Assembly (NCBI GenBank): GCA_033762595.1 | Contig: JANRLM010000010.1 | Coordinates: forward strand, 9,494-33,493 | Origin: Rickettsiales bacterium | GTDB taxonomy: Bacteria; Pseudomonadota; Alphaproteobacteria; Rickettsiales; UBA8987 | Reading direction: 5' to 3' | DNA: 24,000 nucleotides | Part shown: in pieces, positions 2,033 through 15,886 of the stretch | Numbering within the stretch: position 1 is the first letter of the stretch | Layout of the letters: every line of letters begins with the position of its first letter | Notes under the pieces: generated by a model | Told to the model about the DNA's origin: nothing | The model's database searches: none | Seen by the model: only the letters and a program-made list of their open reading frames with translations | Program-made: the position numbers and the translations under genes

Positions 2033-2107
2033 GGCCCCGTCGTCTAGCGGTTAGGACATCGCCCTTTCACGGCGGTAGCACGGGTTCGAGTCCCGTCGGG
2101 GTCACCA
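2033..2107 (+). tRNA. tRNA-Glu (anticodon UUC), CCA encoded
   Basis: 75 nt: GGCCCCGTCGTCTAGCGGTTAGGACATCGCCCTTTCACGGCGGTAGCACGGGTTCGAGTCCCGTCGGGGTCACCA. The 7-bp acceptor stem GGCCCCG/CGGGGTC has one G-U pair. The anticodon loop is CTTTCAC, and the T-arm is CACGGGTTCGAGTCCCGT. It aligns position by position with the E. coli tRNA-Glu architecture. Confidence 0.92.
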
Positions 2108-11207: not shown

Positions 11208-13166
11208 CTAAATCCCCTCGCCAATTTTTGCACGGCTATATTCTTCATCAATAGGTTTAACGAGGTTTGCATCAATATATTCCATTAATTTTGCGACTGA
11301 TTCATCAACAGAATTTTTAGCGGTATCAATCACAACATCAGCATTTTCAGGAACATCAAATTTATCATTAATCCCAGTAAAATTCTTGATTTCTCCAGCA
11401 ATCGCCTTTTTATATAAACCTTTAGGATCTCTCTGTTTGCAGGTTTCTACATCAGCTTTGATGTAGATTGAATGATAGGAATCACCAGCTGCAACACGGG
11501 CTTTGTCTCTATCCTCTTTGTAAGGTGAAATAAACGCCGTGATAACTATAACGCCCGCTTGAGCAAAAAGTGCTGCAACTTCACCAACTCGGCGGATATT
11601 CTCGCTTCTGCCTTCCTTAGAGAAATCTAAATCCGCACTTAAACCGCCACGAATATTATCACCATCTAACACGAAAACCTGATAGCCTTTTTCAAAAAGT
11701 TTCTGCTGTAAAGCAAGTGCAATAGTTGTTTTACCTGAGCCTGAAAGTCCGCTAAACCAAAGCACGCCTCCCTTATGGCCATTCGCAATCGCCCTGCGAG
11801 TTGGATCAATGCGAGATTCAACTGGATAAAGATTATCTGATTTTGGTTGAGATTTAGTGCGTTGATCCGAAAATCCCTTCAAATCAATTATACCACCGCC
11901 TATTGTGCGATAATTCTCAACAATAACAAATCTGCCAGTTTTAGCGTTGTTTGCGAATTCATCAACGCAAGCAAGACCACGAATTCTAAATACTACTTCC
12001 GCAACGGAATTTTTCTGCACTTCATCTTTTTTGCCAGTGAAACTTAAATCTTCAGTATCAACAACTCTTTCTATTGCCTTAACTTCCGCCTGATATTCAG
12101 AGGTATTTATTTTGATTAAATATTTTTTGCCTTCCTTGATTGGCTCATCACCTAGCCAGAAAATTTTACCTCTAAAAATATTGGTTAAAATTGGTGCGTT
12201 TTCAAGATGGCTAACAACTTGCCCGCGTTCTGCGAAAATTTGTTCAGATAAAGTTATGCCGACTGATTGCCCTGCAAAAGCTTGAGTAACAGGCGTTTTA
12301 GCCGGTGGCCAAGTTTCAATAGAGTTTATTTTTACTTTGCGATTTGAAGGCGAGAAAACTATTTCATCGCCTACTTTTAGAGAGCCAGCCTCAATTCTAC
12401 CAGCGATAATGCGTCTTTCATCAAACTTATAAACATCTTGCACAGGCAAGCGAAGTGAGAGATTTTCAAGGCTAGGCTTAGGTGCAAAGCCATCTAACGC
12501 CTGCATAATTGAAGGGCCTTTATACCAAGCCATATTTGAGGATTTGCTTGTGATATTATCCCCCTCACGGCCAGAAATTGGAATTATAAAGGTTGGAGTA
12601 ACGCCAATTTCTGCCAAATATTCTGTGTATTGTTTTTCAATCTCACGGAATTTTTCTTCAGAATAATTAACTAAATCCATTTTATTTACTGCCACTGCAA
12701 TTTGAGAAACACCAAGCAGAGATAGCAAATAGCCATGACGGCGAGATTGCTCTTTCACGCCTTCTTTTGCATCAATTACTAGAATTGCAGCCTCAGAATT
12801 TGCCGCCCCAGACACCATATTTTTTAGGAATTCCTTATGCCCCGGCGCATCAATAATAACATAATTTCGCTTTTCAGTTTTGAACCATAATTGTGTTGTA
12901 TCAATGGTAATGCCTTGATCCCTCTCAGCTTGCAGGGCATCAAGCAAAAAGCTATATTCAAACGGCATTCCACGACGAACGCAAGAGGCTTTAATTTGCT
13001 CAACTTTCCCTTCTGGTAGGGAATCAGTGTCATAAAATAAACGCCCGATAAGCGTAGATTTTCCGTGATCAACATGTCCTACAATTACGATTTTTAATTG
13101 CTCCTTTGATTCCATGGTTGATGGTTGATGGTTAATAGTTGATGGTTTTATGTTTGTCTTAGTCAT
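11208..13166 (-). CDS. cysNC: Bifunctional CysN-like GTPase (sulfate adenylyltransferase subunit 1) / adenylylsulfate kinase CysC
   Basis: 652 aa. GTPase motifs [14 protein letters not shown] and NKMD, plus [16 protein letters not shown] (CysN-like). The C-terminal APS kinase has GLSGSGKTT and FVLDGDNIR. The start at 13166 is supported by SD AGGAA 6 nt upstream. Confidence 0.85.
13115..13146 (-). repeat. 32-bp perfect inverted repeat, left arm (inside cysNC codons 7-17)
   Basis: On the minus strand it reads ACCATCAACTATTAACCATCAACCATCAACCA, identical to 14170-14201 on the plus strand. It has heptamer periodicity (ACCATCA ACTATTA ACCATCA ACCATCA ACCA). Confidence 0.9.
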
Positions 13167-13203
13167 ATTTATTTCCTAGTTTGTGAATTATCTTTTATTA
13201 AAT

Positions 13204-13602
13204 TCATCTTGAAATTTTTGAGGTTTCTAAAGCAAAATTGAATTGTTTTGTAAAGAATTCTCTAATCATTTTTTTATCTTCATCAGTTATATTGTAAATT
13301 TTTCCTGAATCACCAATTTTTATATGGCCTATATTGAGTTTAGAATCTACGACTTCTAGCATAGATTTTTCAGTTAAATCTTCCGATTCAGAACTATTGA
13401 AAGTTTTTGCTAAATTTAAGGCAATAACTTTACAATGAGTTCTATTAAAAAATGCACCTGCAACTCTGGAAATAACATTTTTATTAAATGAAATTCTTTG
13501 CTCAGCGGTTAGCGAGTCTTTAGAATTAGCAGATCTAGCATTAGTAATTGTTTGAAAACTAATTCTTATTCCTCCACTTTCTAACTGAGTATCTGAACCC
13601 AT
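13204..13602 (-). CDS. Hypothetical protein (132 aa), upstream of and co-oriented with cysNC
   Basis: Good SD (AGGAA 6 nt upstream of the ATG). No TM segment, signal peptide or recognisable motif. Its stop is 37 nt before the cysNC start. Confidence 0.55.
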   Translation of the reverse strand: MGSDTQLESGGIRISFQTITNARSANSKDSLTAEQRISFNKNVISRVAGAFFNRTHCKVIALNLAKTFNSSESEDLTEKSMLEVVDSKLNIGHIKIGDSGKIYNITDEDKKMIREFFTKQFNFALETSKISR

Positions 13603-13765
13603 ATAATTTCCTTAATGATATATAAAAAGCCATTTATAAGGGTTTTTTGCGAAAAATAAAGGGGGAAATTTAGGCTGGGTATTCCAAAAAAACTAATAAT
13701 CTTGTTTTTTTGTAAAAAATCTTGTTTAAGTTAAACTTAAAACTGAACTCTAACAAACTAAAATT

Positions 13766-15064
13766 ATGCCTAAAGAAATATTAATGCCAGCACTTTCGCC
13801 AACAATGACAGAAGGTAACCTTGCTAAATGGACGAAAAAAGAGGGTGATAAAATAAAAGCTGGTGATGTAATTGCTGAAATTGAAACAGATAAAGCTACA
13901 ATGGAAGTTGAGGCTGTAGATGAGGGAATTCTTGGAAAAATCATCATTCAGCAAGGCACAAACCAAGTGAAAGTGAATCAAGTAATCGCATTAATTTTGG
14001 AAGATGGCGAAGATAAAAAAGCTCTTGATGCTTACCAAATCAAGCAACCAGAAGCCCCTAAGAAGGAAGAAGTCGCTAACCAGAATTCTAGTATCAGTGC
14101 AAGCGTTAGTAAAGCTCCGAGCATCGCTCCGCAGATTACTGCCGCCCCAAGAATTGCCCCACAAATTGCACCATCAACTATTAACCATCAACCATCAACC
14201 AATACTAAAGCTAGCCCCCTAGCTAAAAAAGTGGCACAAAATAGCGGTGTTGATTTATCTTCAGTGAAGGGAACAGGGCCAAAGGGCAGGGTGGTTAAGG
14301 GTGATGTTGAAGATTTCCTTGCAAATGGTGGCGGTTCTAATGTTATCCGCAGAAATCCAGTAGCGTTTGAGAGTTTTCCAAATTCAAATATCCGCCAAGT
14401 TATTGCCAGAAGGCTTCTTGAATCTAAACAACAAGTTCCGCATTTTTACCTAACGATTGATTTGGATGTTGATAATCTGCTTGAAACTCGTCGCCAAATT
14501 AATGACTTAGCACCAGTTTCAGAAGATGGCAAACCGCTCTACAAAATCTCCGTAAATGATTTGGTTATCAAGGCTTCAGCCCTTGCCCTCAGGGATGTTC
14601 CAGCGGCAAATTCAAGCTGGTATGATGACGCAATTGTGCAATATAATAATGTTGATATTTCGGTTGCGGTGGCGACCGATGGCGGTTTGATTACGCCAAT
14701 CATCTTCAATGCGGATCAAAAATCTGTAATTGCAATTTCAAACGAAATGAAAACACTTGCGAAGAAAGCTCGTGAAAACAAGCTTAAACCTGAAGAATTC
14801 CAAGGCGGTGGTTTTTCAATTTCAAATCTTGGAATGTATGGAATTAAAACTTTCTCAGCGATTATAAACCCGCCACAATCTTGCATTTTAGCGGTTGGCG
14901 CATCTGAGGAAAAACCAGTTGTGAAAAACGGCCAAATCAAAACTGCAAATATTATGAGCGTTACACTTTCCGTAGATCACCGCTCGGTTGATGGTGCAGT
15001 TGGTGCAGAATTCCTCCAATCCTTCAAAAAATATATTGAGAATCCCGCAGGATTGTTGGTGTGA
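13766..15064 (+). CDS. pdhC: Pyruvate dehydrogenase complex E2, dihydrolipoyllysine-residue acetyltransferase
   Basis: 432 aa. One lipoyl domain ([15 protein letters not shown]), an Ala/Pro-rich linker, a peripheral-subunit-binding domain ([33 protein letters not shown]), and a catalytic domain with DHRSVDGA. Confidence 0.9.
14170..14201 (+). repeat. 32-bp perfect inverted repeat, right arm (inside the pdhC linker)
   Basis: ACCATCAACTATTAACCATCAACCATCAACCA, read CCA TCA ACT ATT AAC CAT CAA CCA TCA ACC = [10 protein letters not shown]. The frame and peptide are the same as in cysNC. Confidence 0.9.
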
Positions 15065-15067
15065 GAT

Positions 15068-15886
15068 ATGCTTGATGTTAAACTTTTCAAATTCATTAAT
15101 GACAAAACTCTTGAAATAAAGGAAGATTTTTCAGGAAATGAAAAATCAATTCAAAAAATATTTGAGAGTAATTTGGAAAGCTTGCTTAATATATATTTTC
15201 TTGAAACTGAATTCAGCACTGGATATCATCACGGCGGAAGAATAGATACATTAGGGCTTGATGCTAACAACTGCCCTGTAGTTATTGAGTATAAAAAAAA
15301 TTCAGATGCTAATGTTATTACACAAGGTTTATATTACCTAGATTGGCTTTTTGATCATCAATCAGATTTTAGAGATTTAGTAAAACATAAACTTGGAGAA
15401 GAAAAGGCAAATTATATAAATTTTGCTCAATCAAGGCTTATATGTATTTCAAGGGAGTTTAATAAGTTTGATTTTTCTGCAATTCAGCACATTAACAAAA
15501 ATATTGATTTAATTAAGTATAGAAAATTTCAAGATAATGTTTTTTACATTGAAACCATAGACCCTAAAAACATCATTAGAAAGCCAATTAAAGTGCTTCA
15601 TAACAATAAGGTAAATAATAAAATAACCATTCAGAAAAATGAGGCGGAACAAGAGGAAAAGAGCAGATTTGAAAATAAAGTTGCTAAGTTGTTAAATTGG
15701 ATTGAAAAACAAGGCGGGTTAGTTGATAAAACAAAAATGTTACAGAATTTCGGCAAGCATTTTGACAATAGGAGAGAAAGAGAAGAAGCAATACAGGAAT
15801 TAATTGAAAGGGAAGCAATAGAAGCTATTAATATTGGTGAAGCAGGAAGAAAGAAAACAGGCTATAAAATAAAAATTCCCACTTAA
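15068..15886 (+). CDS. NucS/DUF91-like PD-(D/E)xK nuclease-fold protein with a charged, probably winged-helix C-terminal region
   Basis: 272 aa. FLETEF...GGRIDTLGLDANNCPVVIEYKKNSDANVITQGLYYLDWL parallels the NucS C-terminal nuclease core (E...G.ID..G.D......VV.E.K.......Q...Y). The start lies 3 nt after the pdhC stop. Confidence 0.55.
   Translation: MLDVKLFKFINDKTLEIKEDFSGNEKSIQKIFESNLESLLNIYFLETEFSTGYHHGGRIDTLGLDANNCPVVIEYKKNSDANVITQGLYYLDWLFDHQSDFRDLVKHKLGEEKANYINFAQSRLICISREFNKFDFSAIQHINKNIDLIKYRKFQDNVFYIETIDPKNIIRKPIKVLHNNKVNNKITIQKNEAEQEEKSRFENKVAKLLNWIEKQGGLVDKTKMLQNFGKHFDNRREREEAIQELIEREAIEAINIGEAGRKKTGYKIKIPT

Follow-up and report, generated by a model that had tools for sequence, protein, structure and literature searches.

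Why two unrelated genes, cysNC and pdhC, should carry within their coding sequences the same 32 nucleotides in inverted arrangement is the question raised by this locus of an uncultured alphaproteobacterium (genome G000; 1.67 Mb, 34% GC). Within the 24,000-nt stretch of DNA analyzed (the window), the 32-mer ACCATCAACTATTAACCATCAACCATCAACCA occurs exactly twice, once in each gene and on opposite strands (Table 1), with 0 mismatches (32/32), as had been claimed in an earlier reading of this DNA made from its letters (the sequence-only reading). In shuffled windows (100 shuffles), 0 copies are expected.

Table 1. Features of the cysNC-pdhC locus (positions are those of the window).
Feature	Position	Strand	Description
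cysNC	11208..13166	-	652 aa; sulfate adenylyltransferase GTPase subunit fused to APS kinase
(ACCATCA)n-family tract in cysNC	13115..13146	-	codons 7-18; variable N-terminal tail preceding a conserved 19-residue segment
orf132	13204..13602	-	small orphan, fast-evolving ORF between the two tracts
pdhC	13766..15064	+	432 aa; dihydrolipoamide acetyltransferase E2 with lipoyl, linker, E3-binding and catalytic domains
identical tract in pdhC	14170..14201	+	codons 135-146; end of the Ala/Pro-rich linker
272-aa ORF	15068-15886		no Pfam family

The repeat, its frame and its host genes

Each copy is contained in a long ORF, one coding for a CysN-CysC fusion and the other for a PDH-type E2. The 32-mer consists of the heptamer units ACCATCA ACTATTA ACCATCA ACCATCA ACCA, and TRF run on both tracts returned a period of 7 with 4.6-4.9 copies, which confirms the earlier statement that the period is not a multiple of three. 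The tract ends are the exact limits of identity, the sequences flanking the two copies being unrelated. Compared with (ACCATCA)n, the 32-mer shows two C-to-T changes only, both synonymous in the frame used (ACC to ACT, ATC to ATT). In both genes the codons are CCA TCA ACT ATT AAC CAT CAA CCA TCA ACC, and the same 10-residue peptide is encoded.

That both copies are sense-oriented and share a frame had been presented as a notable coincidence; the description is right, but the coincidence is nearly forced by stop codons. Direct computation shows that two of the six frames of the 32-mer are open. No frame of the complement, (TGATGGT)n, is free of stops, and in the 32-mer variant one of the sense frames is interrupted by TAA. 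As all three antisense frames contain stops, coding copies must be sense, and as the two genes are divergent and both copies are sense, the copies stand in inverted arrangement. Sharing the same frame has then a chance of 1 in 2.

CysNC matches the Pfam families GTP_EFTU (1.7e-45) and APS_kinase (1.6e-61), and its start at 13166 is backed by the conserved MxK(T/P)N N-terminus of relatives and by an AGGAA sequence located 9 nt upstream. Its N-terminal tail varies in length and sequence in 23 of the 23 orthologues listed. PdhC matches 2-oxoacid_dh (2.4e-87), Biotin_lipoyl (5.8e-19) and E3_binding (4.5e-15). Placed by the Pfam domain limits (lipoyl 4-77, E3-binding 148-182) and by alignment of the linker across relatives, the pdhC tract immediately precedes the E3-binding domain (KASPLAKK). 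A database look-up found no other assembly encoding the exact PdhC sequence.

A dispersed heptamer family

The exact 32-mer has no further copy in the whole 1.67-Mb genome and is absent from the metagenome contigs searched; the heptamer is dispersed in dozens of copies. Arrays of two or more ACCATCA units are found at 13 sites genome-wide, against about 0.01 expected by our own base-composition estimate. Exact repeats of three or more units number 11 for period 7 and 3, 1 and 0 for periods 6, 8 and 9, respectively, and the shuffled genome has 0 of period 7. For degenerate tracts the excess is similar in kind (42 for period 7, against 0-8 for periods 4-13). The ACCATCA family amounts to about 45 tracts in G000.

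Most of these tracts are non-coding: ORFs of 90 aa or more cover 90% of the genome, yet 26 of the 42 period-7 tracts fall outside them. Intergenic tracts adjoin stop or start codons, and most have an inverted partner with which they form hairpins (MFE -40 to -56 kcal/mol). The remainder include in-frame STINHQP-type peptides in at least 13 proteins, all sense-oriented. In SucB a 14-residue family peptide occupies the corresponding place in the linker, the essential genes dnaE and purM are among those with family tracts, and the cysH-like, cysD-like and cysNC genes each have one. Such coding tracts would act as harmless Pro/Ser/Thr/Asn/Gln-rich spacers in disordered segments, which at this locus would be the N-terminal tail of CysNC, variable among orthologues, and the linker between the PdhC domains.

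Within such a family, 32 exact bases are no outlier. Among 990 tract pairs, the longest exact shared strings measure 52, 32, 31, 31, 29, 29, 28, 27 and so on, the cysNC/pdhC pair standing at the upper end of a continuous distribution.

Comparison with known repeats

The sequence-only reading had suggested a mini-insertion tolerating in-frame residence, of the kind of the Rickettsia palindromic elements, and by analogy our data favor it. Those elements are reportedly palindromes of about 100-150 bp with a family consensus. Compared by description, both are dispersed repeats found in frame in essential genes as well as between genes, and both appear to insert a short peptide where the protein is surface-exposed or tolerant, with function preserved. 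The ACCATCA copies differ in being 21-35-nt heptamer arrays, and the 32-mer is neither palindromic nor structured as RNA.

A closer counterpart is provided by the heptanucleotide STRR sequences of the cyanobacteria Calothrix and Nostoc (Mazel et al., 1990, as cited in PMC4692102) and by the GGGAATC repeats of Xanthomonas and GGGGAYT repeats of Nostoc (Rehm et al., 2015, PMC4692102). Like these, the ACCATCA family is built of 7-nt units, arranged in short tandem arrays (2-6 units) that are scattered through the genome in dozens of copies; a strong period-7 excess and enrichment in non-coding DNA near ORF ends are likewise shared. The present host differs in being a small-genome (1.67 Mb), 34% GC uncultured alphaproteobacterium, and the unit is C/A-rich, not G-rich, and hence devoid of G-quadruplex potential. 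Moreover, many ACCATCA copies are inverted pairs forming hairpins, and at least 13 are in frame in housekeeping proteins. The pair is an ordinary case of a known, poorly understood repeat type. We consider it likely, for our explanation as a whole, that the two 32-mers are resident copies of a dispersed STRR-type ACCATCA family.

Age of the tracts and identity of the two copies

The closest relative, sister species G001 (85-87% nucleotide identity; PdhC 94% identical), has tracts at both sites. Its CysNC tract KIATINNQPSTM shows 5/32 differences from the 32-mer and its PdhC tract TPSTINHQLSAN 2/32; the two differ from one another at 7/32 positions, and ACTATTAAC is retained in both. G002, of the same genus, is without a tract at either site and without the family genome-wide. 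The orthologue alignment places both tracts already in the common ancestor of G000 and G001. When a 21-mer was searched at 2 or fewer mismatches, 55 windows were obtained in G000 and 21 in G001, and only 1 of 400 other Alphaproteobacteria gave a match, a single one. In other genera, different heptamer units occupy the same tolerant sites, i.e., the CysNC tail (G017, G018) and the PdhC linker (G013, G018, G008).

Identity of the copies had been taken to imply recent insertion, gene conversion or selection at the nucleic-acid level. This stands, with the qualification that the pair is older than the species split and identical in G000 only. Of the outcomes that the sequence-only reading had named as refuting it, part was obtained: similar peptides are encoded by diverged DNA in orthologues, and the heptamer microsatellite is dispersed in dozens of copies.

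We assigned changes in the cysNC and pdhC genes to branches with G002 as outgroup, and counted 138 unique changes on the G000 branch and 99 on the G001 branch. By a simple equal-rates argument on 7 sites, p is about 0.42^7 = 0.002 for all 7 tract differences to lie on that of G001. Later non-reciprocal homogenization in the G000 lineage is the most likely origin of the perfect identity, and the event that this pattern favors is probably gene conversion between the nearby inverted copies with pdhC as donor and cysNC as recipient. Such a conversion would belong to a family-wide concerted evolution. As regards this step, the pattern fits equally with a faster decay of the tracts in G001 or with a third copy having re-templated them.

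Two other accounts of the identity were weighed. It is unlikely, in our judgment, that no conversion took place and that both copies are simply near-consensus members left unchanged in the G000 lineage by chance or weak constraint. Unlinked family tracts do share 25-31 exact bases, variant units included, and ACTATTA is not exceptional among the variants, accounting for 6 of about 190 units where single-site frequencies predict about 3; the ACT ATT state recurs in TruB-like C40, G001 purM and G001 sucB, and third-position C-to-T changes are favored because the genome has 34% GC. Nevertheless, this account needs all 7 differences to fall on the G001 branch when the G000 branch is slightly longer, and it leaves the identical copies only 1 kb apart, an unlikely distance for an unrelated pair among 45 tracts in 1.67 Mb. 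Equally doubtful is that a third source copy re-templated both sites after the species split, either by copying linked to PF05635 and heptamer arrays or by ectopic conversion (e.g., from the sucB linker copy). G001 sucB holds 31/32 bases of the 32-mer, and so does, in frame in uvrC, a contig from an unrelated 56% GC organism. A 24-nt tract of the UbiG-like methyltransferase is perfect and unchanged between G000 and G001 against a background identity of 82%; the intergenic hairpin site C20, missing in G002, has a perfect (ACCATCA)5 arm in G000 and degenerate arms in G001, and the PF05635 gene has on its flanks arrays from this unit family, ACTATTA included. Against re-templating, there is no known enzyme or mechanism, the sucB copy of G000 is pure consensus with 3 differences from the 32-mer, and the genome holds no further exact 32-mer. 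Conversion from pdhC to cysNC is the account that we favor. The match in uvrC hints, however, that this form of the 32-mer may itself be preferred or act as a source, and may not owe its presence here to local conversion alone.

Switch, regulatory and slippage readings

The sequence-only reading had also pointed out that the pair might serve as recombination arms, inversion of the 1-kb segment exchanging the normal genes for a lipoyl-CysNC chimera and a lipoyl-less E2. The arithmetic is right, as the shared frame would leave the chimeras in frame; the two arms match perfectly in inverted orientation over 32 bp, roughly the shortest length at which RecA-dependent exchange operates in E. coli. 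Yet orientation and frame are already imposed by stop codons, and G001 keeps the same gene order with arms differing at 7/32 positions, so that the repeats are not conserved as arms between the relatives. Neither protein is truncated, and orthologues in 20 or more genomes are colinear with them. The inversion would produce an E2 lacking its lipoyl domain and, by established PDH biochemistry, unable to perform the acetyl-transfer cycle. No recombinase domain was found in cysNC, pdhC or the scanned neighbors, orf132 and the 272-aa ORF. We regard a switch of this kind as barely credible.

It is very improbable, too, that cysNC and pdhC share the tract as a cis-acting RNA element co-regulating sulfate activation and PDH, whether as a CA-rich enhancer of translation or as a target of an sRNA or a protein. 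The cysNC copy is CA-rich, unstructured and located soon after the start codon, and tracts are common to the cysH-like, cysD-like and cysNC genes; but the pdhC copy, at codon 135, is distant from any initiation region, both copies drifted in G001, and the tract also recurs in dozens of intergenic hairpins and in 11 or more further unrelated proteins. An Rfam search of the tract gave no match, and local RNA structure was not significant at the cysNC and pdhC copies (z +0.84 and -1.42, respectively). The cysH and cysD tracts are accounted for otherwise, since a PF05635 element is inserted between those genes.

The remaining suggestion was a slippage-prone tract, the cysNC copy acting as a contingency locus in which a change of one unit would shift the frame at about codon 10 and turn sulfate activation off or on. 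The period is not divisible by 3 and the tract is near the 5′ end of the gene, as are the heptanucleotide repeats of Haemophilus influenzae hmw1A, where a one-unit change would shift the frame or affect expression and HMW1A undergoes phase variation (PMC8262952); heptamer copy number also varies beside the Coxiella IVS ORF (PMC4990558). In contrast to the long perfect arrays with length polymorphism of such loci, the cysNC tract has two perfect adjacent units only. Tract length is equal in G000 and G001 at the five coding sites compared (cysNC, pdhC, sucB, purM and the UbiG-like gene) despite 13-18% nucleotide divergence, and the hosts are housekeeping genes, cysNC as well as the essential dnaE and purM. 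A contingency locus is accordingly highly unlikely. The cysNC/pdhC pair would have no dedicated function, neither as a switch nor as a regulatory site.

Association with PF05635 elements

The genome has a single PF05635 (23S-rRNA-intervening-sequence/Avd-like) gene, on a separate contig (C112:4488-4941), between the cysH-like and cysD-like genes. It is bracketed by inverted arrays of ACAATCA, ACAATTA, ACCATCA, ACCATTA and ACTATTA units, i.e., of the same heptamer unit family. Inverted repeats bracket 26 of the 26 PF05635 genes examined in G000 and relatives, with scores of 13-30 (control median 10, maximum 14). The ACCATCA family is thus associated with PF05635 elements bracketed by inverted heptamer arrays, and the tie may be a causal one.

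Between the two copies of the cysNC/pdhC pair there is no PF05635 gene; the arms are separated by 1 kb that includes part of a host gene. The ORF lying there, orf132, has no Pfam family and, with E allowed up to 10, no hit to PF05635, shows no similarity to the PF05635 protein of the genome and, among 5.8 billion proteins, hits only itself; with a 123-aa ORF at the equivalent place in G001 it shares 27% identity (E 1e-5). It is neither a PF05635 gene nor part of the repeat family.

A comparable arrangement is that of the Coxiella burnetii 23S rRNA IVS, which has an S23p/PF05635 ORF and adjacent tandem heptamers (PMC4990558); PF05635 is related to the DGR accessory protein Avd (PMC10053308). 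In both cases a small gene for a PF05635 four-helix bundle is bracketed by inverted repeats and accompanied by tandem heptamers, whose number varies in Coxiella; in G000, however, the gene lies between the cysH-like and cysD-like genes and not in 23S rRNA. We tentatively put forward, as a possibility that we do not favor, that heptamer arrays in this lineage serve as inverted arms at the termini of small mobile PF05635 elements, from which the many hairpins without a gene and the solo in-frame tracts, the cysNC/pdhC pair among them, would derive, an active and sequence-specific copying or conversion keeping them homogeneous.

Significance

For the cysNC/pdhC pair itself, these results are of very little importance: the tempting accounts of a 1-kb inversion switch yielding lipoyl-CysNC chimeras and of sulfur/PDH co-regulation are set aside as unsupported. 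The wider interest lies in the family. Heptanucleotide repeats of bacteria, on record since 1990, are still unexplained. G000 offers a clean, small system in which one unit family occurs in hairpins, in at least 13 housekeeping proteins and in PF05635 arms, and in which orthologous tracts appear to evolve concertedly and in a non-clock-like manner, while across genera different units are placed at the same tolerant protein sites. Taken together, these roles of a single unit family, the concerted evolution and the shared sites make the association of heptamer arrays with PF05635/Avd-like genes testable. If the arms hypothesis were true, the long-unexplained bacterial heptamer repeats (STRR and similar) would gain an identifiable genetic agent, and housekeeping proteins would recurrently receive "coding-compatible" peptide insertions from PF05635 elements.

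A 32-nt Sequence in cysNC and pdhC Belongs to a Genome-Wide Heptamer Family

The 32-mer ACCATCAACTATTAACCATCAACCATCAACCA is present in both cysNC, which encodes a CysN-CysC fusion, and pdhC, which encodes a PDH-type E2. The plus/minus placement claimed in the sequence-only reading is borne out: the two copies show 0 mismatches and are both read CCA TCA ACT ATT AAC CAT CAA CCA TCA ACC. No further site within three mismatches of the 32-mer was found in the window (none was expected from shuffled controls), and the same two copies are the only exact ones in the genome (1.67 Mb, 124 contigs, 34% GC). In cysNC, the tract corresponds to codons 7-18, in a tail ahead of a conserved 19-residue segment; the real start of this gene is the upstream ATG, because relatives share the MxK(T/P)N N-terminus and AGGAA lies 9 nt upstream. 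In PdhC, the tract forms the end of the Ala/Pro-rich linker, immediately N-terminal to the E3-binding domain. Identity between the copies ends precisely at the tract boundaries. An assembler artefact is an unlikely source of this identity, because the unique flanks fall within any k above 32. The exact 32-mer gave 0 matches in JGI metagenome contigs, and no other assembly has the exact PdhC protein on record. Features are listed below; ORFs were called by length alone.

Coordinates of the features discussed (window positions unless a contig, C, or a locus, L, is named; G000 is the genome holding the window, G001 its sister species, and G018 and G024 belong to other families of the order)
Feature	Position	Strand	Remarks
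32-mer, cysNC copy	13115-13146	-	
32-mer, pdhC copy	14170-14201	+	
cysNC	11208-13166	-	652 aa; GTP_EFTU and APS_kinase domains
pdhC	13766-15064	+	432 aa; lipoyl, E3-binding and catalytic domains
orf132	13204-13602	-	small ORF between the tracts
272-aa ORF	15068-15886		neighbouring ORF
tRNA (Rfam)	2033-2104		
G001 counterpart of orf132	L054:2480-2851	-	123 aa
UbiG-like gene tract	C3:7354-7393		G001 locus L161
PF05635 gene	C112:4535-4918		23S_rRNA_IVP, 124 bits; weaker bAvd
PF05635 element with arrays	C112:4488-4941 (L165:1420-1874)		inverted arrays of the ACCATCA unit family bracket the gene
cysH-like ORF	C112:4957-5922		
cysH-IVP-cysD, then cysNC, G018	L182, C72:3601-5980		
cysH-IVP-cysD, then cysNC, G024	L168, C23:2425-5739		
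52-nt direct duplication	C57:16965 and C57:17243		copies about 280 nt apart
GC-rich palindrome sites	C3:3245-3295; C30:8640-8760; C106:3090-3210		

The 32-mer is a member of a genome-wide heptamer family. Two or more consecutive ACCATCA units occur at 13 sites in the genome, and a unit-wise scan yielded 45 ACCATCA-family tracts (ACCATCA, 75 units; ACTATCA, 19; ACCATAA, 12; ACAATCA, 11; ACCATTA, 6; ACTATTA, 6). Exact repeats of at least three units number 11 for period 7, as against 3, 1, and 0 for periods 6, 8, and 9, and the shuffled genome contains 0 such period-7 repeats. With a tolerant lag-match criterion, 42 period-7 tracts were obtained versus 0-8 for periods 4-13; 26 of the 42 lie outside ORFs of at least 90 aa, which make up 90% of the genome. 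Most intergenic tracts are faced by an inverted partner at a distance of a few bases up to some tens, with which they fold into long hairpins of MFE -40 to -56 kcal/mol; these often span the gap between co-directional genes. Additional unit families are AACGATT, AACTCCC, AACCTAG, and AACTACC. We considered ACTATTA as the mark of a special master sequence; within this genome it is only about twofold over the single-site-frequency expectation, and such a role was not established.

Several other repeats were observed. Contig C57 carries a 52-nt exact direct duplication with an ACCATCA-family tract. A GC-rich palindrome of the type CCTCCCCC-GTAAACA-GGGGGAGG makes up a second repeat family; it is found together with heptamer tracts, some of which sit in its loop, and is read in frame (…LTSPRKQGEDYF…) within the cysH-like gene. 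In JGI data, the 23-mer core of the 32-mer has 16 matches in unrelated metagenome contigs of 34-62% GC, some as arrays or hairpins, which bears on the spread of the unit and not on the cysNC/pdhC locus. In an unrelated organism (L141 and L152, metagenome, 56% GC), 31 of the 32 bases (CCATCAACTATTAACCATCAACCATCAACCA) lie in frame in uvrC.

In-Frame Tracts in Proteins and Relatives

Since the 7-nt unit shares no factor with the codon length of 3, each sense frame of (ACCATCA)n reads as one and the same cyclic peptide, TINHQPS, and each of the three frames of its complement (TGATGGT)n contains TGA. The 32-mer variant has two of six frames open (two 10-residue peptides), the third sense frame containing TAA. 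Any tract surviving within a gene must therefore be sense, as are all 13 in-ORF ACCATCA-family tracts of this genome; in divergent genes an inverted repeat is then necessary, and the same frame is expected by chance in 1 of 2 cases. The shared orientation and frame of the two copies are thus forced and uninformative.

STINHQP-type peptides occur in at least 13 proteins. Besides CysNC and PdhC, the carriers include a class I aminoacyl-tRNA synthetase, a UbiG-like methyltransferase, PurM, SucB, PyrF, DnaE, a TruB-like protein, a glycosyltransferase, and the products of the cysH-like and cysD-like genes. In the paralogous E2, SucB, a 14-residue peptide occupies the equivalent site, immediately before the E3-binding domain. 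This in-frame residence supports the proposed resemblance to Rickettsia palindromic elements (RPE) as an analogy; in contrast to members of that family, the 32-mer copies are short, non-palindromic arrays. All coding copies are solo tracts.

The source organism is an uncultured alphaproteobacterium within a MAG group mostly labelled Rickettsiales. Its sister species, G001 (PdhC 94% identical in amino acids; nucleotide identity 85-87%), has the same cysNC, small ORF, and pdhC arrangement. The G001 cysNC tract, AATAGCAACTATTAACAATCAACCATCAACAA (KIATINNQPST), differs from the 32-mer at 5 of 32 positions and its pdhC tract, ACCATCAACTATTAACCATCAACTATCAGCCA (PSTINHQLSA), at 2 of 32, the two G001 tracts differing from each other at 7. 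Both retain ACTATTAAC, and the tract pair is therefore older than the split of the two species. In G002, of the same genus, unrelated sequence occupies both sites and the whole genome contains no ACCATCA tract. Windows matching the 21-mer with at most two mismatches number 55 in G000, 21 in G001, and 11 in G008, with a few in G003 and G018; they are absent from most other relatives, and one of 400 other Alphaproteobacteria gave a single match. The ACCATCA family is, on these counts, lineage-restricted.

Other genera carry other heptamers in the same proteins: (CTCAACT)n in G017 and (CTAGCCA)n in G018 in the CysNC tail, and (CAACTGA)n in G013 and (AGAAGCC)n and (GGAATCG)n in G018 in the PdhC linker. 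The linker of G008 contains (ACCATCA)n, but elsewhere along its length. As different heptamers occupy the same tolerant places, the CysNC tail and the E2 linker are places where such repeats recurrently land or expand, the relatives compared being non-independent samples. Comparison with G002 did not reveal a precise 21-nt insertion: the difference is 3 codons in the CysNC tail, 0 in the PdhC linker, and 4 in the UbiG-like gene, where G002 is the shorter and has only CCATTAAC at the tract site. For this reason the tracts look like replacement or expansion inside already variable segments, and not simple cut-and-paste insertions.

Identity between the Two Copies

When the family tracts were compared in all 990 pairings, the longest exact matches measured 52, 32, 31, 31, 29, 29, 28, 27, and 27 nt, and so on downward; 52 is the local duplication on C57, 32 is the cysNC/pdhC pair, and several of the others join unlinked tracts with variant units. 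The lengths thus form a continuum, with 32 at its top. The two non-consensus bases of the 32-mer (ACC to ACT, ATC to ATT) are synonymous in the frame used, and the ACT/ATT state recurs in the TruB-like gene on C40 and in G001 purM and sucB, the G001 sucB copy being 31/32 identical to the 32-mer. Simple retention of ancestral identical copies in G000 is unlikely: with G002 as outgroup, cysNC and pdhC together have 138 unique substitutions on the G000 branch and 99 on the G001 branch, and retention requires all 7 tract differences to fall on the latter (p about 0.42^7 = 0.002; 7 sites, equal-rates model). These comparisons are most economically read as homogenisation of the two tracts in the G000 lineage, probably by gene conversion, with the pdhC copy as the probable donor, since G001 pdhC has 2 differences from the 32-mer versus 5 in G001 cysNC. 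Two other cases show concerted behaviour elsewhere. The UbiG-like gene contains a perfect 24-nt (ACCATCA)3+ just before its LDIGCG motif, identical in G000 and G001 against a background identity of 82%, and one orthologous intergenic hairpin, not present in G002, has a perfect (ACCATCA)5 arm in G000 but only degenerate arms in G001.

The pair had also been read as the arms of an invertible segment. At 32 bp the repeat is close to the shortest that supports homologous exchange, and inversion would indeed yield in-frame chimeras; however, G001 retains the gene order although its arms differ at 7/32 positions, CysNC and PdhC are colinear with their orthologues in at least 20 genomes, the product would include an E2 without a lipoyl domain, and no recombinase domain was found in the two unassigned neighbouring ORFs that were scanned (orf132 and the 272-aa ORF). 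A shared regulatory RNA element is unsupported: folding around either copy gave no significant structure (z +0.84 and -1.42), Rfam families across the window comprise the tRNA and nothing else, family tracts reside in many other proteins, and the G001 copies have diverged. Slippage, which had also been suggested, is unlikely: the tract has just two perfect adjacent units, and lengths are equal between the two species at 5/5 coding sites compared.

Inverted Repeats Bracket PF05635 Genes

G000 has a single gene of the PF05635 (23S-rRNA-IVS/Avd-like) family, located between cysH-like and cysD-like PAPS_reduct genes. The cysD-like gene, likely the missing partner of the window cysNC, has its codons 2-15 (MLQSTINNQQLTINQ) supplied by the left array of this element; the right array reads ACCATTA ACAATTA ACCATTA ACTATTA ACAATT. 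The same order is found in G018 and G024, with 4-nt start/stop overlaps. Its recurrence in two other families indicates that the PF05635 gene has either long resided in the sulfate-assimilation operon or entered it repeatedly.

PF05635 genes were detected in 17 genomes (G000 and 30 relatives surveyed), with up to 10 copies (G011). Inverted repeats bracket 26/26 of those examined (L165-L194; G000 and 16 relatives), with local scores of 13-30 (median 21.5) versus a median of 10 and a maximum of 14 in 96 shifted controls. Most arms are 7-periodic, with a unit specific to each copy; one G018 element uses CTAGCCA, the unit also found in the CysNC tail of G018. In the Coxiella 23S IVS, variable-number tandem heptamers adjoin the S23p ORF (PMC4990558), and PF05635 is related to the DGR protein Avd (PMC10053308).

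We considered whether the cysNC/pdhC pair are arms of such an element and rejected it, as the pdhC lipoyl domain lies between them and orf132 is unrelated to PF05635 (no Pfam match, no similarity to the G000 PF05635 protein). This ORF is an orphan, matching only itself among 5.8 billion proteins. G001 has an ORF at the same place with 27% identity; the flanking genes are 94-95% identical between the two species, and no part of the intergenic DNA can be aligned.

Heptameric SSRs are an over-represented class, documented yet unexplained, whose general excess was noted in 2007; examples are STRR in Calothrix/Nostoc and GGGAATC in Xanthomonas (PMC4692102). The tracts described here extend this class to another host and another unit, with an RPE-like in-frame habit, and PF05635 elements may be the agents behind the heptamer arrays and their in-frame derivatives.
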